Assembly: GCA_049515895.1 (NCBI GenBank)
Contig: JBEKTQ010000004.1
Span: forward strand, 32,001 to 96,000
Direction of reading: 5' to 3'
Source: Candidatus Bathyarchaeia archaeon
GTDB taxonomy: Archaea; Thermoproteota; Bathyarchaeia; Bathyarchaeales; Bathycorpusculaceae
DNA: 64,000 nucleotides
Within the stretch, counting starts at the first letter, position 1. Each line of letters begins with the position of its first letter. The notes under the pieces were generated by a model. That model was not told the origin of the DNA. It was given only the letters and a program-made list of their open reading frames with translations, and searched no databases. Below, piece by piece: positions 12,627 through 61,904 of this stretch. The translations under genes were made by a program, and so were the position numbers.

Positions 12627-12857
12627 ATGCCTATGGACTTGGAAGAGTACTCAAAAGAGAAGCTTTGGCAGCTACTTGTTGAAACAGTGCATGCTTCAGT
12701 TATGTACCCGACCCATAAGGCTTACACGCGCGGGAGCATTTTGCCGCTGAAAGCTGATGTAACCGCTTCTGAGCTTGCCGAAAGGCTTGGCATGCCGCTC
12801 GGTGAAGCATTGGTGATTCTGAGCGAGCTGCTGGAAGAGAGAAAATTGCCCGCTTAG
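12627..12857 (+). CDS. Small hypothetical protein with possible C-terminal HTH
   Basis: 76 aa ORF filling the intergenic space; ASELAERLGMPLGEALVIL resembles an HTH. Confidence 0.6.
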   Translation: MPMDLEEYSKEKLWQLLVETVHASVMYPTHKAYTRGSILPLKADVTASELAERLGMPLGEALVILSELLEERKLPA

Positions 12858-12925: not shown

Positions 12926-12949
12926 CGTTATGTTTATATAAGCATAACG
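12926..12949. promoter_or_regulatory. Palindromic operator, putative ModE box upstream of tupA
   Basis: CGTTATGTTTATATAAGCATAACG, a near-perfect palindrome just downstream of TATA-like ATATTTAAAG; same arms recur at 53646. Confidence 0.75.
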
Positions 12950-12973: not shown

Positions 12974-14332
12974 ATGAAAGTTCTAACAAAGGTACTCGCA
13001 GTAGTCTTGATTGTCATAATTATAGCTGGAATAGGCACTTACGCAGCATACACTTACCTTAAGAACACGCAAAGTACACCTTCACCGACTCCATCCCCCA
13101 CGTTCACCCCAACACCAACGCCTAGTCCAACCACATCTCCAACAGCAACTCCAACATCCTCTTCGAGCCCAACAACCATTCCTACCCCAACTCCTACTAT
13201 CAATACCTCACCCAACCCTCCCCGCACAACATTGACAGTAGCAACGACCACAAGCCTCCATGACACAGGATTAGAAGACAACGGAGCAGGCAACATCAAA
13301 GATGCCTTCCAATCAGAATATCCATGGATAACAATTAACTTCAATGCGTTAGGAACTGGCGCTGCAATAGCAAATGCAGAGGCAGGCGACTCGGACATGA
13401 TCCTTGTTCATTCGCCATCTCAGGAACTTAACTTTTTAAAAAGCGGGTCAGGAGTAGACCGCAAAATAGTGGCATACAACTTCTTCGTTATTGTCGGCCC
13501 TGCAAACGATCCTGCAGGTATCAGCAGCATGACTAATGTGAGTCTAGCTCTGCAAACACTTTACAACGCTACCCAACCTGGCAATCCGAAATACAACCCC
13601 AATGTTCAGTGGTTCTCAAGAAATGATGGTTCAGGAACAGCCACCGCAGAGCAGAATCTTTGGAAAGCCGCGGGATTCAATTACAATACATTAACAACAC
13701 AGACATCCTGGTTTCATACCACTCAGCAAGGGATGGGATTAACCTTGCTTGCAGCCAACAACGGCGTAGGCTCTAGTCCTTCGGGGTACACATTATCAGA
13801 CACCGGCACATACCTTTCCTATTACGATCAAAACCTAATACAATTGAAGATCCAAATTCAAGCTCAACAAGCCTTGCTCAATGTCTACAGCGCAATAATT
13901 GACAACCCGCAAAATTCTACTCTAGCGGGCACAAACTTTAACGCTGCCTTACTTTTCGTCAACTGGCTAGTTTCACCTCAAGGACAGCAAGTGATAGGCA
14001 GCTATGGGATTTCAACCTATGGGCAATCGTTGTTCACTCCCTTTGTTCCTCTGGTTAGCGGCGCTTCATCTAACACTACATTACTCGGTTGGATTCAAAG
14101 TTACGCTTACATGAATGCAAACCCTGCCATCAGCGCTAGCGGAACAGAGTGTCCGTCGCAGTACCGATATAACGCCGGTGACCTTTACTCGCCGTCTTAT
14201 GACGCAGTAGCGAACATGAACGCTAATGTTCCCATAGACTTTGTGAACTATACCGTAGCAGACAGCCAAAAGCCAATAATTGCACTGCCAGCAAAAAGCA
14301 GTCCGAGCACGGCTAAAATAATTTGGGAGTAA
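12974..14332 (+). CDS. tupA: Tungstate ABC transporter substrate-binding protein TupA
   Basis: N-terminal TM anchor, Pro/Thr linker, TTTSLHDTGL signature, GTGAA, YNFFVIVGP, SRNDGSGT, YTLSDTGT. Confidence 0.88.
   Translation: MKVLTKVLAVVLIVIIIAGIGTYAAYTYLKNTQSTPSPTPSPTFTPTPTPSPTTSPTATPTSSSSPTTIPTPTPTINTSPNPPRTTLTVATTTSLHDTGLEDNGAGNIKDAFQSEYPWITINFNALGTGAAIANAEAGDSDMILVHSPSQELNFLKSGSGVDRKIVAYNFFVIVGPANDPAGISSMTNVSLALQTLYNATQPGNPKYNPNVQWFSRNDGSGTATAEQNLWKAAGFNYNTLTTQTSWFHTTQQGMGLTLLAANNGVGSSPSGYTLSDTGTYLSYYDQNLIQLKIQIQAQQALLNVYSAIIDNPQNSTLAGTNFNAALLFVNWLVSPQGQQVIGSYGISTYGQSLFTPFVPLVSGASSNTTLLGWIQSYAYMNANPAISASGTECPSQYRYNAGDLYSPSYDAVANMNANVPIDFVNYTVADSQKPIIALPAKSSPSTAKIIWE
13075..13225 (+). repeat. 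Low-complexity Pro/Thr/Ser linker (TPSPTPSPT...) in TupA
   Basis: Translation STPSPTPSPTFTPTPTPSPTTSPTATPTSSSSPTTIPTPTPT. Confidence 0.8.
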
Positions 14333-14381
14333 GGTTAAGAAAAGCTCAAATAAACTTCCTCTTATTTCTTTTGTGATATGC

Positions 14382-15128
14382 ATGGCTGATATTATCGGTC
14401 CCGCATTCGAACAAGCAATCAAACTAATCTTAGGCGGCAATCACGACGTTTACGCGACAGTTTACCGATCCATCTACATTGCAGGTTTGGGAACGTTTTT
14501 GGCTTGTTTATGGAGCATTCCAATAGCTGTAGTTTTAGGTTTGTATAGTTTCAAAGGAAAATGGGTTATCAAAGGCATCTTTAACGCTTTGATCGGTGTA
14601 CCAACTGTAGCCTTAGGGCTGCTATTGTATTTGCTCCTGTCAAGGCAAGGCGAATTCGGAAGCTTTCATCTTCTTTACACTCTTAACGGTATCGCAATTG
14701 GCGAATCAATTCTCGTAACCCCAATAATTGTTAGTTTTGCATCAAACGCGTTGGCGACAGCTGACACACAGCTCAGGGACTTAGCCAGAACACTCGGCGC
14801 TTCAGGGCTGAGAACCAATTCAACTTTGATTCGGGAAACAATCTGGTCAATAATGCTTTCGATTACGGCTTCTTTTAACAGAGGATTTGGCGAGCTTGGC
14901 ATAGCGATGATTGTGGGCGGAAATTTCGTGGGCGTTACCCAAGTTTTAACTACTGCCATCAGCGTTCAGATAAACTTTGGAAATTTCAGTTTTGCTGTGG
15001 CTTACGCAATAATTCTTATGGCAATAGTGATTGCGTTAGCTTTAACGATCAGTCTAATTGAGCGGCTCAGGCAAGAAGATGCATCAATATATCGGCTCCA
15101 TTTCTGGAGAGGTCTAGGCGGAAGCTAA
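14382..15128 (+). CDS. tupB: Tungstate ABC transporter permease TupB
   Basis: Hydrophobic; GVPTVALGL, ARTLGA, GELGIAMIVGGN; follows tupA. Confidence 0.88.
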   Translation: MADIIGPAFEQAIKLILGGNHDVYATVYRSIYIAGLGTFLACLWSIPIAVVLGLYSFKGKWVIKGIFNALIGVPTVALGLLLYLLLSRQGEFGSFHLLYTLNGIAIGESILVTPIIVSFASNALATADTQLRDLARTLGASGLRTNSTLIRETIWSIMLSITASFNRGFGELGIAMIVGGNFVGVTQVLTTAISVQINFGNFSFAVAYAIILMAIVIALALTISLIERLRQEDASIYRLHFWRGLGGS

Positions 15129-15131
15129 AAA

Positions 15132-15848
15132 ATGAGTGTCCGTCTTCAGCTGGCAGATATTAAAAGAAGCTATCGAGCCGTAAAAGCTCTGCAATCAGTG
15201 TCGCTTGACCTACAGGGTGGAAAAATAATAGTTCTTTTAGGTGTTAACGGTGCAGGCAAAACAACGCTTATGCGGATTATGGCTGGCTTAGAAAACGCCG
15301 ACTCTGGAAAACTTATGCTTAACAATCAAACAATCGAATGTAAGGCTTTACGTCAGATTTCAACATTGGTTTTTCAAAGGAGTGCAATGTTTAGCCTAAA
15401 CGTTTACGACAATCTGGCGTATGGCCTTCGAATCAGAGGAGTCCGAAAAGAGGAAATACAAAAAAAAGTCGCTGAAGCCCTCCAAGAAGTGCGGCTCTCC
15501 GGATTTGAGAAACGAAAAGCAAAAAAGGCTTCAGGCGGAGAACAACAAAGAATTGCACTTGCCCGAGCATTCCTGCTAAATTCACACGTGCTGCTTTTAG
15601 ATGAGCCTACTGCGAATTTAGATCCGAACAGCGCAACCATCATTGAAAAGGCAATAGTGGCCCGAAAGCGCTCTGACCGCATTATAGTTATTTCAACCCA
15701 CAACCTAAGCCAAGCGAAAAGAATTGCTAACGAGATAATTCACATCTACAACGGCGAAATACTTGAGGTAGCAACGCCTGAGGATTTCTTTGACAACCCA
15801 AAAAGTGAAATCTCACGCAAATTCGTCAACGGGGAATTGGAATTCTAA
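15132..15848 (+). CDS. tupC: Tungstate ABC transporter ATPase TupC
   Basis: GVNGAGKT, SGGEQQR, LLLDEPT. Confidence 0.85.
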   Translation: MSVRLQLADIKRSYRAVKALQSVSLDLQGGKIIVLLGVNGAGKTTLMRIMAGLENADSGKLMLNNQTIECKALRQISTLVFQRSAMFSLNVYDNLAYGLRIRGVRKEEIQKKVAEALQEVRLSGFEKRKAKKASGGEQQRIALARAFLLNSHVLLLDEPTANLDPNSATIIEKAIVARKRSDRIIVISTHNLSQAKRIANEIIHIYNGEILEVATPEDFFDNPKSEISRKFVNGELEF

Positions 15849-16036: not shown

Positions 16037-16594
16037 ATGCTTGCCAACAAAAAACGTAAGCTCTCATGCAAAGTCTGGTTAGAATACAAAGATAAACCGA
16101 TAATAGGCAAAGGTGGAGCCGAAATACTCGAAGCTGTCGACAAAGAAAAGTCCATTTCTAAAGCTGCGGAAACCTTAGACATGTCTTATCGTTACGTGTG
16201 GAATTACCTGCAGGATATTCAAAATGCCCTTGTGCAGCCGATAGTTGAAACCCACAAGGGAGGCAAGGCTGGAGGCGGAGGCGCGAAGCTGACGGATTTA
16301 GGGAAGAACTTGCTGGTTGAGTATAAGCAGGCTGAGAGCTACTTGGGGAACGTTTTGTCTAACTCGGGAAGTTTGGAGGTGAAAGCTTTGAAGTTGAGTG
16401 CAAGGAACCGATTTAAAGGGAAAGTTGTAGCAGTGGAAAAAGGCGTTATTACAGCTAAAGTGAAGGTTGAAGTGAAGGTGCCCGTAACAGTTACCGCCGT
16501 CATAACTAAGGACGCAGTTGAAGACTTAGACATTAAGGTAGGCGACGAAGTAGAAGCAATCATAAAGTCAACAGAAGTAATGATCGCCAAATAA
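16037..16594 (+). CDS. modE: ModE-family molybdate/tungstate-responsive regulator (wHTH + single TOBE/Mop domain)
   Basis: SISKAAETLDMSYRYVW, GGKAGGGAKLT, C-terminal LSARNRFKG..AIIKSTEV Mop domain. Confidence 0.9.
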   Translation: MLANKKRKLSCKVWLEYKDKPIIGKGGAEILEAVDKEKSISKAAETLDMSYRYVWNYLQDIQNALVQPIVETHKGGKAGGGGAKLTDLGKNLLVEYKQAESYLGNVLSNSGSLEVKALKLSARNRFKGKVVAVEKGVITAKVKVEVKVPVTVTAVITKDAVEDLDIKVGDEVEAIIKSTEVMIAK

Positions 16595-51177: not shown

Positions 51178-51681
51178 TTAACTTGTTTTTTCTGTCGGTT
51201 TTTGGAGCAGCTTTCTAATGGCGCTGATTCTTGCTTTTTGAGCTAGTGTATCGCTAGTGACAAGGGTCAATGCTTCTTCAGGGCACCATTTGACGCATTG
51301 GGGTCCGTCGGGTTTGTCTTTGCAGAGGTCGCAGACGTAGACCACTTTGGTTTCGGGATGCAGCATTATGGCGCCGTAGTCGCATGCTTCGATGCACCAT
51401 CCGCAGCCGTTGCATTTGTCCTTGTCAAGGACAATGTTTCCGGTATCCTCTGACTGTGTGAGTGCATTTTTTGGACAAGCCGCTACGCACGCTGGGGCCT
51501 CGCAGAGCCTGCATGTAACTGACATGTTGGCGACTTGGTTAACGCGGACAACGCGTATGCGTGATTTAAGGGGGTTGAATGCTTTTTCTTTGGTGAATGA
51601 GCAGGCGTATTCGCAGATTTGGCAGCCTACACATTTTTCCGGGTCAACTGAAACGAATTTTCTTTCGCGAGTTTTGACCAT
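51178..51681 (-). CDS. 4x[4Fe-4S] electron-transfer subunit (DmsB/CooF-like) of aldehyde oxidoreductase
   Basis: 16 Cys in CxxCxxCxxxC/CP motifs; starts 2 nt after the aor stop. Confidence 0.9.
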   Translation of the reverse strand: MVKTRERKFVSVDPEKCVGCQICEYACSFTKEKAFNPLKSRIRVVRVNQVANMSVTCRLCEAPACVAACPKNALTQSEDTGNIVLDKDKCNGCGWCIEACDYGAIMLHPETKVVYVCDLCKDKPDGPQCVKWCPEEALTLVTSDTLAQKARISAIRKLLQKPTEKTS

Positions 51682-51683
51682 TT

Positions 51684-53540
51684 TTAATCCTCTTTTCCTT
51701 CAACTATGCCTGATAAATCTTCCAGTCCAAGCTTGGTGAGCACATCTTTTGTGGGTACTCCTTCAAGCGTCCAGTTGCGTGACAGGTAATAGTCATCGAG
51801 AAGCAAGTCAAGCTCCTCCTGAGTTACCACGGAGCCTTTTCCTGGGCCATCATCAGTTATTGGTTGGTTCATGACTTTCCACGGCAACGTGTCGTCTTTG
51901 CGACTTAATCCTTCCCGGATGTTAATTAGCCGCGCAAGATTGTTTATCCGTTCGCCTGCAAGGCTTAGCTCCTGCGGAGTCATCTCGTACCCCGTTACCA
52001 GAGTGTAAAGCTTAGCCATGTCAGGCAACTCCTTGTACAGGGTGCCTCTAGCGTTCTTGCAGATAATGAGTGAATCAATTAAAGCGTAAATATCTTCGGA
52101 ATCTTTGACCAGTTTGCCTCGGCCTTTTTCAGCTTTAAAACGGTCAACTTTACCCGATATATCAAACGCATACGCGCCGCTGCGGTTGTGGTCAGCTCCA
52201 CGGAAGGAAACTGCAAACCCTAAAGCAGCGGTTTTCAAGCATCTTAAATCGTAGCCTGTGACTTCCAACCCCTTGATGTTCTGAGCAAGCTTATCAGAGC
52301 CTTTGCCGATTTTCGCTGCTGCTGCTTTCGCCCCATCAGCCAAGACCTCGCCGATTCCCTCTCGTTTGCCTATTTTCTCAATTAGCTGCAAGAGGGCTTC
52401 TGCGTTTCCAAAATGAGCGTCAATTCCATCAAGCTCCTCATGTGATAAGATGCCTTTTTCATGACAATCCATTACGAAACTGACCGTCACACCCGTGCTT
52501 GTCGCATCTAAACCATAATAATTGCAGAGGTCACTGGCTTTGATTATTGCGTCAAGCTTATCGACACCGCAGTTCGGGCCGAGTGCCCAGATGTTATCGT
52601 ATTCCATGCGTGCCATGGTTCCTTTGTATGGCCCATCATGGATAACGGCTTCATGCTCGCACCGCATTGCGCATGAGTTGCAAGCGATTATTTTCGCGAC
52701 GTATCTTTCGTTTAGAGTTTCACCGCTTACTTTTTCAGCGTTATCAAAATATGAGTTATTGTAGTTGCGTGTGGGCAAGCAGTGTAGTGCGTTTAGAATC
52801 ATAACGTTTTCTGCTGACCCCAATGTTCGGTATTTTTGCGCTGCTGGTCCTTTCATTCTTTCATGAAACTCCTTGACCATCTCAATAAATTCTTCAGGCT
52901 TAGCGACAACAATGTCTTTGGTTCCCCGCACAGCGATGGCTTTTAGGTTCTTTGACCCCATGACTGCGCCAAGGCCTGTTCTTCCAGCTGCGCGGGTTTT
53001 CTCGTTTGTTATGTTGGCGATTTTGGACTGTTTTTCGCCTGCCAAACCAATGGAGGCAACGCGCACGTAGTAGTCCCCAAGTTCCTCTTTAACTGCGTCT
53101 TCGGTTTCGGAGGGCGATTTACCCCAAATTTTTTCTGCATCAAGTAACTGGACTGAATCATCATCTATCCAAAGGTAAACGGGTCTTTCGGCTTTCCCAG
53201 TTAGAATTATAGCGTCGTAGCCAGCTCTTTTTATTTCTGCTCCGAAGGTGCCGTGGCTTACTGCCTCACCGACACCGCCCGTTTCAGGTGATTTTGAAAT
53301 GAACGCGTGTCCATTCCCGCCCGTCGGGAACATAGTTCCTGAAACTGGACCCACTGCTAGAACCAGCGGGTTTTCAGGATTGAATGGGTCAACGCCTGCT
53401 TTTGAGTTGGCTAGCCAAAGTTTCATGCCTAAGCCTATGCCGCCAATGTATTTTTTGGCTGTTTCCTCGTCTAGTTTCTCCATAGTTATTTTGCCTATGG
53501 ATAAGTTAACGCGTAGAACCCTTCCTGCGTAACCGAGCAA
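51684..53540 (-). CDS. aor: Tungsten-dependent aldehyde:ferredoxin oxidoreductase family protein
   Basis: GYAGRVLRVNL, KSPETG, AGYDAII, RAAGRTGLGAVMGSKNLKAI, CNSCAMRC, EYD, IIC, GERI..L.R. Confidence 0.95.
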   Translation of the reverse strand: MLGYAGRVLRVNLSIGKITMEKLDEETAKKYIGGIGLGMKLWLANSKAGVDPFNPENPLVLAVGPVSGTMFPTGGNGHAFISKSPETGGVGEAVSHGTFGAEIKRAGYDAIILTGKAERPVYLWIDDDSVQLLDAEKIWGKSPSETEDAVKEELGDYYVRVASIGLAGEKQSKIANITNEKTRAAGRTGLGAVMGSKNLKAIAVRGTKDIVVAKPEEFIEMVKEFHERMKGPAAQKYRTLGSAENVMILNALHCLPTRNYNNSYFDNAEKVSGETLNERYVAKIIACNSCAMRCEHEAVIHDGPYKGTMARMEYDNIWALGPNCGVDKLDAIIKASDLCNYYGLDATSTGVTVSFVMDCHEKGILSHEELDGIDAHFGNAEALLQLIEKIGKREGIGEVLADGAKAAAAKIGKGSDKLAQNIKGLEVTGYDLRCLKTAALGFAVSFRGADHNRSGAYAFDISGKVDRFKAEKGRGKLVKDSEDIYALIDSLIICKNARGTLYKELPDMAKLYTLVTGYEMTPQELSLAGERINNLARLINIREGLSRKDDTLPWKVMNQPITDDGPGKGSVVTQEELDLLLDDYYLSRNWTLEGVPTKDVLTKLGLEDLSGIVEGKED

Positions 53541-53645
53541 CCTATGTTCCTCCGTTAAATTTAGAATTATTAGTCAGTTGAACAGTATATTAAGTTAATG
53601 GGTTTTATTTTTGAAATTCATGGCTGAGAGGGGTTTCAATTTTAG

Positions 53646-53669
53646 CGTTATGAACACTCTGTCATAACG
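53646..53669. promoter_or_regulatory. Palindromic operator, putative ModE box between divergent aor and moaD
   Basis: CGTTATGAACACTCTGTCATAACG, with the same 7-bp arms and 10-bp spacer as the tupA site. Confidence 0.75.
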
Positions 53670-53770
53670 CTTTTCTGTGTTATCCGCAAGTCAAAAGGCG
53701 TTTTGGTACGGATAAAAGATATGAGTCGCCTCATTCAATCCAATACATGGTTGTAGCAGAGGGTCAAAAA

Positions 53771-54058
53771 ATGAAAGTTAAAGTTCACTACTTAAGCCTG
53801 GTCAAGAGCTTCACTAAGACAGGCCAAGATGAATTCGATCTAAACCAAGATGTGGCGCTGTCGGATTTGCTATGCGACGTCGCTGAAAAATATGGGAAAC
53901 CCTTCACGCAAGAGGTTTACGACCCAACTAAAAAAGAGATGAAGTCAACATTCGTGACCATGGTTAACGGTGTCTTAATGGATCAACTGCAAGGTATCAA
54001 CACGCCACTTAAAGACGGTGACAACATAATTATAATGTCTCTTATGACAGGCGGCTAA
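53771..54058 (+). CDS. MoaD/ThiS/SAMP-family sulfur carrier
   Basis: Beta-grasp pattern MKVKVHY..MVNG..LKDGD..; C-terminal GG. Confidence 0.88.
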   Translation: MKVKVHYLSLVKSFTKTGQDEFDLNQDVALSDLLCDVAEKYGKPFTQEVYDPTKKEMKSTFVTMVNGVLMDQLQGINTPLKDGDNIIIMSLMTGG

Positions 54059-54786: not shown

Positions 54787-55272
54787 TTAAAAAGCTTTTA
54801 ATGGTCCTTCAGAAGTCTTGAATTCAATCAAAATGATCCAAAAACCGCTTTGCCATGCTGTGAGCTTTCGCCAAAGAATCAAAGTTTCATACCAAAACAC
54901 AGCAACCATAGCAACGCAAACAACTATCAGCCAAAACGTAAAATCCGAACCGTAAAGTGCTTCTAAAGAAAAAAAGGCAACTACAATAGTGAAGAGCAAC
55001 GAGAAGAAGAACAGTTGGGGCACCACCGCTGGACCGACTTTGGAGTAACCCTCAAGAACTTTGGCTGATGCATCCTTGATAGCGAAGTACTTTCCCTGTT
55101 CGTCTTGCTTAACGTAGTTGGCTTCTACAAGTTTCCCCAAATGATAGGAGGCTAATGAGGCTGAAGACAACTCGAGACCTCGTTGAACCTCCCTAAGCTC
55201 AGATGGACCGTGTTTAAGAAGGTGCAAGTATGCCTTTAGCGTATTGCCTCTAATTTCTTGATTATTTGGCAT
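54787..55272 (-). CDS. wHTH regulator with C-terminal transmembrane helices
   Basis: REVQRGLELSSASLASYHLGKL wHTH followed by two hydrophobic helices. Confidence 0.75.
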   Translation of the reverse strand: MPNNQEIRGNTLKAYLHLLKHGPSELREVQRGLELSSASLASYHLGKLVEANYVKQDEQGKYFAIKDASAKVLEGYSKVGPAVVPQLFFFSLLFTIVVAFFSLEALYGSDFTFWLIVVCVAMVAVFWYETLILWRKLTAWQSGFWIILIEFKTSEGPLKAF

Positions 55273-61113: not shown

Positions 61114-61713
61114 TCATAAGCGGTAGTCAAGGGTTCCTCTTTTTATCAGAATTGTCATCACTACGGCGCTAATAATGTATTCTACTATGAGGAAGCTGCC
61201 ATTATAGATGGCTGGAAAAATCCATCTTCCGTATGCGGGAAACGCATAAACGTAATACCAAACGAATACGCCTGCGAAATAGTGAACGAGGAATCTTAGG
61301 AAAACAGCGATGCCAGCGCCGACAAGGGCAAGACGAACGGTTTTGTTGTGAAATAAGCTGGTTAACATGCCTGTTAGCCCAATTAACCCAAAAGCTACAG
61401 GGTACTCGAACACTGCTTGGACGGGAGTGGCAACTACCGCTGAAGCTCCAAGAGAAAGCACATCGATTAACAAAGCAATTGCGCCAAATATTGCTCCTGT
61501 TATCAATCCCACACGGATACCTCGCCTAATAGACAGCCACATTGTTGGAACCATGCTACCCAGAGTCACGGCGCCACCATAAGGCAATGAAAATGGTCTA
61601 AGAGCATACAACACGGCTGATAGAGCCGAAAAAACAGCAATTTCCGCAAGAATTTTTGTTTGGAATATAGTATTAGATTTTTCAGTTATGTTATCTGATT
61701 TAGGTTGGTTCAA
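61114..61713 (-). CDS. thiT: Thiamine ECF transporter S-component ThiT
   Basis: LAEIAVFSAL, PYGGAVT, RRG..G, HYFAGVFVW, YNGSF; TPP riboswitch upstream; true start probably TTG 61713. Confidence 0.85.
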   Translation of the reverse strand: MNQPKSDNITEKSNTIFQTKILAEIAVFSALSAVLYALRPFSLPYGGAVTLGSMVPTMWLSIRRGIRVGLITGAIFGAIALLIDVLSLGASAVVATPVQAVFEYPVAFGLIGLTGMLTSLFHNKTVRLALVGAGIAVFLRFLVHYFAGVFVWYYVYAFPAYGRWIFPAIYNGSFLIVEYIISAVVMTILIKRGTLDYRL

Positions 61714-61716
61714 TTT

Positions 61717-61810
61717 TTTTCCCTCCGCCAGCATTACCTGGTTCAGGTTCTAAGGGTCGACAGCGACTAGCCGTCCTCTCAGCCGGGTCTACTCCCAGCT
61801 CCCCGAGAAC
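61717..61810 (-). ncRNA. TPP (THI-box) riboswitch
   Basis: Minus strand GUUCUCGGGGAGCUGGG..CCCGGCUGAGAG..GACCCUUAGAACCUGAACCAGGUAAUGCUGGCGGAGGGAA; conserved UGAGA and ACCUGA..UAAUG..GGAGGGA; stems P1-P5 can pair. Confidence 0.93.
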
Positions 61811-61904
61811 ATCTTAATGGGATAATGTTTTTAGGATATATTTTAGTTTTCCTACCCGGAAACTTTAACCCGTTAGAAGCAAAGTGGAATCTGAGGCTTG
61901 AAGC

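Follow-up and report, generated by a model that had tools for sequence, protein, structure and literature searches.

What might a ModE-like regulator do at a promoter that does not belong to its own transporter operon? This question is raised by a short palindrome in the genome of an uncultured soil archaeon, Candidatus Bathyarchaeia archaeon. The window analyzed here, a stretch of 64,000 nt (GenBank assembly GCA_049515895.1, contig JBEKTQ010000004.1, positions 32,001 to 96,000 of the forward strand), contains this palindrome, referred to as site 2, in the spacer between aor, which encodes an AOR-family large subunit, and a divergent moaD-like gene; it contains the same palindrome, site 1, in front of a tupABC-modE operon. 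A sequence-only reading of the window had proposed that both belong to a tungsten regulon, in which one ModE, given available tungstate, represses tungsten uptake and switches on the tungsten enzyme and its sulfur carrier. Three points are at issue: (i) whether site 2 is an operator of the ModE-like regulator encoded in the same window; (ii) how well the site, and its placement relative to the flanking promoters, is conserved among relatives; and (iii) whether ModE would be expected to activate or to repress there.

The palindrome between aor and moaD matches the archaeal ModE box

The palindrome is present at 53646-53669 as the earlier reading had it, and the perfect inverted repeat is longer than was noted then: it extends two bases per side beyond the 24-nt core, from 53644 to 53671, as AGCGTTATGA-N8-TCATAACGCT, with 10-nt arms (53644-53653 and 53662-53671) that are 100% complementary and 8 nt apart. 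Positions 53645-53670 read GCGTTATG-AACACTCTGT-CATAACGC. The site lies within a 230-nt spacer, bounded by the aor start codon (TTG at 53540, minus strand, with GGAGG 7 nt upstream) and by the ATG of the moaD-like gene (53771, plus strand). The description of site 2 as the same palindrome as site 1 was likewise accurate, the cores being identical.

These two sites, both within the window, are the only copies of the exact core with an N10 spacer in the 3.18-Mb, 53-contig genome, for which 0.0136 copies would be expected from base composition (Poisson probability of two or more, 9e-5). When up to three mismatches to the pattern are allowed, the window has two matches against 0.22 expected, and none of 100 shuffles gave two. 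A position weight matrix (PWM) derived from the orthologous sites gives 35.8 bits for site 1 and 23.0 bits for site 2, and no other position in the 3.18 Mb reaches 15 bits. The next-best position, at 14.0 bits (C1:43286), lies in a region with an AsnC-type open reading frame (ORF) and a P-type ATPase gene and is left unassigned. The aor-moaD spacer itself holds one further inverted repeat, TTATCCG-N22-CGGATAA (53680-53715), a part of the alignment that shows little conservation; this repeat is probably due to chance.

The ModE protein of Methanosarcina acetivorans, which has one Mop domain, binds the palindrome RTTATGT-N8-RCATAAY in gel shifts, and mutation or deletion of a half-site weakens or abolishes binding (PMC12327845). 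Site 1, read as GTTATGT-TTATATAA-GCATAAC, agrees with this box at 14 of 14 positions; site 2, read as GTTATGA-ACACTCTG-TCATAAC, agrees at 12 of 14, the two innermost positions being different. Apart from the inverted repeat, the genome encodes a ModE-family regulator and has its boxes in the promoter regions of molybdenum- or tungsten-related genes, namely those of tupA, of aor and moaD, and of a second AOR paralog.

The ModE-like regulator encoded behind tupABC (P0001) combines Pfam HTH_1 (29.2 bits) and TOBE (52.7 bits) matches with an NCBIfam Mop match of 69.6 bits, above the cut-off of 55. Its matches in the PDB are the N domains of ModE (2ijl, 1o7l, 1b9m) and, for Mop, the molbindins 1h9j and 1gug. 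The SARN signature of its Mop domain, which we take to have a part in oxyanion binding, aligns with ModG.

Based on its fit to a box proven by gel shift and on the regulator encoded in the same window, site 2 is very probably a ModE-type operator, as the sequence-only reading had suggested, and the protein that reads it would be the product of 16037-16594. A ModE dimer would contact the two CGTYATG half-sites, whose TTATG and CATAA cores lie one 22-bp unit apart, the spacing of the Methanosarcina box. The features of the two loci are collected in Table 1.

Table 1. Predicted operators, promoter elements and genes at the tupABC-modE and aor/moaD loci (window positions)
Feature	Positions	Strand	Description
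ModE-type box, site 1	12926-12949	.	CGTTATG-TTTATATAAG-CATAACG; 24 nt before tupA ATG
tupA-like binding protein	12974-14332	+	PBP_like_2
tupB-like permease	14373-15128	+	BPD_transp_1
ABC ATPase	15132-15848	+	ABC_tran
ModE-like regulator P0001, 185 aa	16037-16594	+	ModE-type helix-turn-helix (HTH) at N-terminus, single Mop/TOBE
Poly-ferredoxin subunit	51178-51681	-	Fer4 families
AOR-family large subunit (aor)	51684-53540	-	AFOR_N 247.5 bits; AFOR_C 407.7 bits
Predicted aor core promoter, BRE and TATA	53586-53601	-	CCATTAAC-TTAATATA; near-invariant in 50 aligned orthologous spacers
Conserved box between ModE box and BRE	53614-53625	-	AGCCATGAATTT; conserved in genus
ModE-type box, site 2	53646-53669	.	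CGTTATG-N10-CATAACG core; sequence, conservation, PWM
Conserved A/T-rich element, moaD side	53711-53726	+	Consensus AGAAAAAANATATCAG; alignment of 50 spacers
MoaD-like protein, C-terminal GG	53771-54058	+	ThiS family; moaD_arch 43 bits, below cut-off of 49.5
Radical SAM (S-adenosylmethionine) protein, 212 aa	54088-54726	+	TIGR04038 209.8 bits, above cut-off

The site and its distance to two divergent predicted promoters are conserved

A MoaD-like orthologue was found in 59 of 101 sampled genomes of the genus, giving 60 copies with the one described here, and the upstream regions of all 59 copies from other genomes were taken. The core, with no more than three mismatches, stands at the same place in 47 of the 60 orthologous aor-moaD spacers, this one included, and its centre lies 115.5-121.5 nt from the aor start codon in those spacers where the start could be placed. 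Another genus of the family has an AOR orthologue of 82% identity that is preceded by the same arrangement, again with 69 nt to the TATA element. Absence of the site upstream of orthologous aor genes had been named in advance as an outcome that would speak against a ModE circuit, and this is not what the relatives show.

When the 50 spacers of normal length are aligned, five blocks stand out as conserved: the BRE (B recognition element) and TATA of aor, the AGCCATGAATTT box, each of the two arms of the palindrome and, toward moaD, an A/T-rich element. Little or no variation is seen in the arms, whereas the 10-nt spacer between them and about 20 nt of flanking sequence on each side vary freely. 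Toward aor, the arm is CGTCATG in 35 of 46 sites, the other arm being CATAACG, and in most species the arms are thus not complementary to each other.

In the window, site 2 is separated from the aor TATA element TTAATATA (53586-53593, minus strand) by about 52 nt edge to edge, which upholds the earlier estimate of about 50 nt, or by 68 nt centre to centre. Among the orthologues, measured from the centre of the palindrome, the centre of the aor TATA lies at 68-71 nt in all of 46 spacers, and the moaD-side element at 61-65 nt in 44 of the 46. The moaD ATG is less constant, at 100-118 nt. The spacer thus admits insertions and deletions except where they would shift the box relative to either predicted promoter element. 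The A/T-rich element, in its presumed orientation, is the probable BRE/TATA of moaD. Relative to the promoters predicted from conservation, site 2 lies upstream of BRE and TATA and overlaps no core promoter.

The 16-mer that makes up the BRE and TATA of aor has one identical copy in the genome, before the AOR paralog on contig C27, and occurs nowhere else. Both of these promoters also have the AGCCATGAATTT box, which precedes their BRE by 24-25 nt. The genome as a whole has only four exact copies, those at the two AOR paralog promoters included, so that the box is no genome-wide motif. This box may be a third ModE half-site: in favor of this, it reads AGTCATGT in another genus (L170), containing the ModE-like half-site GTCATG; against it, many orthologues have GCCGTG at this place.

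Boxes at the transporter operon and at other AOR paralogs

The half-sites of site 1 enclose the tupA TATA box, TTTATATAAG (12933-12942). The arrangement is retained in relatives: among 31 loci that bear the same small ORF upstream, 25 have site 1 with three or fewer mismatches, and in all 25 the spacer contains TTTAWATA. The small ORF, of 74 aa (12633-12857, plus strand), lies between a zinc alcohol dehydrogenase gene and site 1, has no family match, and is 57-92% identical in relatives (69-92% inside the genus). The proposal that ModE represses tungsten uptake agrees with this position, since a box enclosing the tupA TATA is what repression would predict. Bound around the TATA box, ModE would compete with TATA-binding protein (TBP), for which the genome carries two genes, and would shut off tupABC-modE, resulting in negative autoregulation of oxyanion uptake and of modE itself. 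That ModE would exclude TBP here is suggested by the position of the box together with the known behavior of ModE at transporter promoters.

The genome described here is a metagenome-assembled genome (MAG) of Bathyarchaeia, and its closest public relatives are MAGs labelled Bathyarchaeota or Bathyarchaeia, many of them from peat and soil. Of the 46 ModE loci found with P0001 in public genomes (441 kb), 34 have a box scoring 15 bits or more, in every case at the tup/modE promoter. Its position depends on the lineage: the genus has it before tupA of the tupABC-modE operon, and other Bathyarchaeia families have it in the divergent tupABC/modE spacer. Of two MAGs labelled Nitrososphaerales or Thaumarchaeota, one has it directly upstream of modE. 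In five loci of the genus (L056, L059, L071, L077, L078), a different transporter replaces tupABC upstream of modE; its ATPase has about 350 aa and is 31-34% identical to TupC, and a box of the type CGTTATGTTTGTGTGAACAGAACG lies upstream.

The exact pattern CGTYATG-N10-CATRACG occurs in 11 of 151 genomes of the order, compared with 0 of 151 for the reversed control. Outside the genome described here it occupies 11 places: four tupA/modE spacers, one position upstream of tupA, one upstream of an AOR orthologue, two between a Peripla_BP_2 protein gene and moaE, one upstream of another Peripla_BP_2 protein gene, one beside a molybdopterin oxidoreductase gene (Oxidored_molyb), and one inside an RFC-like ORF, the last of which is probably a chance match. 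The boxes between Peripla_BP_2 genes and moaE and beside the Oxidored_molyb gene belong to other families (L159, L160, L162), from which it appears that the regulon differs between families. In M. acetivorans, Fe-type ABC transporters are also under ModE control.

Within the genus, boxes with at most one mismatch number 84, compared with 24 for the reversed control. Of 61 genomes that have a full-length ModE, 45 have such a box, as do 12 of the 40 that lack one; the comparison is descriptive and not a test, the genomes being related. The MoaD-like gene and full-length ModE largely occur together: 55 genomes have both and 36 have neither, while 4 have the MoaD-like gene alone and 6 have ModE alone.

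The genome has five AOR-family paralogs, two of which carry a box. The sequence-only reading had recommended a search for the motif at other aor loci, and this gave a divided answer: a variant box is present at the C27 paralog, whereas no box is found at the three paralogs on C2, C10 and C1, where PWM scores do not exceed -10.8. The C27 paralog shares 55% protein identity with the AOR of the window and has a AGCCRTGAATTT box at the same distance. Its variant ModE box (G000:C27:38522-38545; L156:2523-2546), CGTTATG-N10-CAGGTCG, scores 13.2 bits and is the third-best intergenic PWM match in the genome. In a survey of 41 promoters, from the 40 best among the orthologues listed and from this genome, the best PWM match was at the same place in 41 of 41, 53-55 nt from the TATA centre (at 54 nt in 38); the consensus is CGTTRTG-N10-CARGTCG, and the score is at least 10 bits in 28 of the 41 and at least 15 bits in 10. 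The second AOR promoter thus has a variant box that is conserved in its own right and is a candidate ModE target; one of its half-sites is good, and its outer CGs are kept. In many relatives (e.g., G086:C36, G097:C1, G071:C9, G060:C12), the two box-bearing AOR paralogs are about 3 kb from each other in a single cluster, with the order aor1, box, moaD, aor2; in this genome, they are on different contigs.

Elsewhere in the window, a thiamine pyrophosphate (TPP) riboswitch (RF00059, 63.1 bits, above the gathering score) lies at 61703-61815 on the minus strand, upstream of the ORF at 61114-61734.

Which protein, if any, reads the palindrome

A palindrome between two genes need not be a protein-binding site, and chance or a nucleic acid structure (a DNA cruciform, or an RNA hairpin serving as terminator or attenuator) with no protein reader has to be considered, the more so as simple arithmetic gives about 0.8 palindromes with 10-nt arms and loops of 0-12 nt in 64 kb. 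We regard such an origin as hardly credible. Between two divergent gene starts a terminator would terminate nothing; the genome has just one other copy of the core, the one at the tupA TATA box; and it is the sequence of the arms that is conserved while the spacer varies. Moreover, covariation over 47 orthologous sites revealed no compensatory changes: the fourth pair is unpaired in 38 of 46 distinct rows, and paired cells amount to 80.1%, against 80.4% in shuffles, as would not be expected of a hairpin. This argues for selection on the sequence of the half-sites, as for a protein site. A different protein might instead be the reader, the candidates being an HTH-only ModE paralog, the 74-aa ORF in front of site 1, and a membrane-anchored HTH protein encoded at 54787-55272. 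HTH-only ModE paralogs are common in the genus, including in genomes without full-length ModE; near-perfect boxes adjoin them in two genomes (L022, L029); and, as noted, 12 of 40 genomes without full-length ModE still carry a box with at most one mismatch. Further near-perfect boxes stand upstream of the S-component of an energy-coupling factor (ECF) transporter in five genomes that lack full-length ModE. Nevertheless, we consider a different reader unlikely. The reader of this motif proven by gel shift is a full ModE with one Mop domain (PMC12327845), and the box tracks full-length modE through differing gene orders and families. The 74-aa ORF was not detected (tblastn, E<=1e-5) in the distant loci L080, L082, L086, L087, L088 and L092, which keep the box, and the gene at 54787-55272 appears to be absent from G019 and G085, where GlpX directly follows the radical SAM gene and the palindrome is kept. 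No box was found near the HTH-only paralog of this genome, the best PWM score there being -0.1.

That paralog (G000:C6:111401-111721; L158:1005-1334) has 109 aa and no Mop domain and is encoded downstream of an AIR-synthase-like gene; it may be a second reader of the motif. The ECF-linked boxes form a class of their own, CGTTATG-TAATTTTTTA-CATAGCG, represented by L025, L027, L040, L026 and L028 (from G050, G065, G007, G103 and G091); in the three loci scanned, L025, L027 and L040, the box is directly upstream of an ECF-type S-component gene (PF07155), and full-length ModE was not found in any of the five genomes. The ECF-linked box may be a target of the HTH-only ModE paralog, or the transporter may be an ECF transporter related to molybdenum or tungsten.

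Activation or repression at site 2

With ModE as the probable reader, the operator at site 2 would lie midway between two divergent predicted promoters, overlapping neither, and ModE would make expression of the AOR, as well as that of the MoaD-like/radical-SAM pair, dependent on tungstate or molybdate status. The boxes fall into two position classes: those at transporter genes enclose the TATA element, and those at the AOR gene, its paralog and moaD lie upstream of it. In Escherichia coli, ModE represses uptake (modABC) and activates molybdenum cofactor biosynthesis (PMC12327845). The fixed geometry, the division into enclosing and upstream boxes, and the E. coli precedent together make activation the most economical reading, and the effect of ModE at site 2 would most likely be positive. 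We give activation of aor and moaD, and its dependence on tungstate, an even chance, the binding, the sign, the metal and the promoter positions all being predictions.

Several points weigh against this reading. Repression is the sole activity demonstrated for ModE in archaea, and in M. acetivorans it is exerted even from sites 160-633 bp before the start codon, although the authors of that work leave an activator role possible (PMC12327845). M. acetivorans ModE bound DNA in vitro irrespective of molybdate (PMC12327845), so that binding by a ModE with one Mop domain may be independent of the oxyanion. Known archaeal activator sites typically abut the BRE, which lets TBP and transcription factor B (TFB) be contacted. 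Site 2 is about 40 nt from the BRE, with the 53614-53625 box in between, so that the activator-type position claimed by the sequence-only reading stands in part: the site is upstream of the aor BRE/TATA and not on it, but farther away than is typical of known activator sites. By our judgement, the aor core promoter looks near consensus. Thirteen of the 60 orthologous spacers have no box, and four lineages (G092, G099, G108, G113) have lost it while keeping ModE; these four retain the proximal AGCCATGAATTT box, and the TATA columns are near-invariant over the 50 aligned spacers. Such losses fit a dispensable repressor site as well as an activator site. In addition, 16 of the 61 ModE genomes have no box with at most one mismatch, and G020, a 95% complete genome, keeps aor-moaD with a two-mismatch box, yet ModE was not found in it with the P0001 query. 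P0001 itself scores 75.5 bits with ModE_repress, below the NCBIfam cut-off of 98.5, and the TupA and TupB models give 133 and 150 bits, both below their NCBIfam equivalog cut-offs, so that specificity for tungstate is tentative.

ModE may repress at site 2 as well: when oxyanion is plentiful, ModE on the palindrome would lower transcription of the AOR paralog and of moaD and the radical SAM gene, perhaps together with the half-site-like AGCCATGAATTT box or by oligomerising. The locus would then belong to a response to tungsten or molybdenum limitation, like tupABC. The precedent of repression from distant archaeal sites is joined here by the high-molecular-weight complexes that M. acetivorans ModE formed on DNA, and by the ModE boxes at its fmd operon, for a molybdo- or tungsto-enzyme, whose sign was unclear to the authors (PMC12327845). 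The loss of the box in four lineages with ModE and the proximal box retained would be expected if loss only derepresses, and a box at only two of five AOR paralogs could mark condition-specific isoenzymes. However, the box overlaps no predicted core element, being 68 and about 62 nt from the TATA-like elements, whereas site 1 in the same genome has the look of an occluding ModE site. The geometry, tightly fixed to both promoters across genera, suggests a stereospecific contact and not a roadblock, and making less of a tungsten enzyme and its sulfur carrier when tungsten is plentiful would seem less economical. We consider repression at site 2 a real possibility, but one clearly short of an even chance.

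As to the metal, the TupA-type transporter and the AOR-family enzyme point to tungsten. A class of regulators termed 'TudE/ModE-like', with an HTH and one TOBE domain, is predicted to bind tungsten when the genome has TupA (PMC11980592); P0001 has the same domain architecture, and the genome encodes a TupA-type protein. That class comes from counting domains in proteins of human gut bacteria, and the passages of that work that describe it give no operator or targets. Taken together, a one-Mop, probably tungstate-sensing, TudE-type ModE would repress uptake and activate AOR and its cofactor genes, a composite that we put forward tentatively, judging it plausible and slightly short of an even chance as a whole.

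Relation to known systems

The closest likeness is to the ModE regulon of M. acetivorans (PMC12327845), in which ModE also consists of an HTH and a single Mop domain and recognizes the same palindrome core with the same spacing. There, modE is beside a Wtp/Tup-like transporter, the transporter boxes lie 24-33 bp before the start codon and have an A/T-rich spacer (24 nt for site 1 here), and boxes are also found upstream of the pterin-enzyme operon fmd and of a radical SAM gene. The circuit described here differs in that it belongs to another phylum, has a TupA-type transporter, involves no nitrogenase, and targets an AOR-family enzyme and a divergent MoaD-like/radical-SAM pair; its half-sites have in addition an invariant CG at the outer end, the arm nearer to aor usually reads CGTCATG, and one box lies at a fixed distance upstream of two divergent promoters. 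E. coli ModE (1b9m, 1o7l) has a homologous N-terminal DNA-binding domain and the dual logic of the proposed circuit, but works at a sigma-70 promoter, whereas here the context is that of TBP and TFB.

TaoR of Desulfovibrio provides tungstate-responsive control of a tungsten AOR and of molybdate/tungstate transport (Rajeev et al. 2019, cited in PMC11980592 and PMC12327845), although its DNA binding in vitro is unaffected by tungstate (cited in PMC12327845). As far as these citations describe it, the physiological circuit, from regulator to AOR and transport, is the same as here, but TaoR is bacterial and from a family unrelated to the ModE-like regulator. Bacterial AOR operons with MoaD-like maturation genes are known, as in Aromatoleum aromaticum, whose aorD and aorE are thought to serve tungsten cofactor maturation (PMC6365974). 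In both cases, an AOR large subunit and a poly-ferredoxin subunit are linked to MoaD-like genes; here, however, the MoaD-like gene is divergent from aor and followed by a small radical SAM gene, the ModE box is shared, and no FAD subunit was seen next to the AOR. Judged by titles and the beginnings of abstracts, we found no paper on this circuit, and the passages of PMC13328260 that were consulted make no mention of regulation. What is new is the lineage, the target (an AOR and a divergent MoaD-like/radical-SAM pair), the presence of a variant box at a paralog, and an upstream geometry that is conserved; the switch is of a known kind, and no new type of system is involved.

Bathyarchaeia are abundant and uncultured, and their gene regulation is almost unstudied. 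In this case the sequence suffices to read off a regulator together with its operator and targets, supported by a motif established by gel shift in another archaeal phylum and by conservation across dozens of genomes. The circuit would link tungstate or molybdate uptake to one specific AOR paralog and its cofactor genes, and it offers a candidate case for the question raised by the authors of the M. acetivorans work, whether archaeal ModE can activate. If the composite reading is true, this would be the first archaeal ModE activator, acting from one operator about 69 and 63 nt from two divergent promoters and, through a variant operator, likewise at a second AOR paralog, in a circuit conserved over a large soil and peat genus of Bathyarchaeia and its neighbors.

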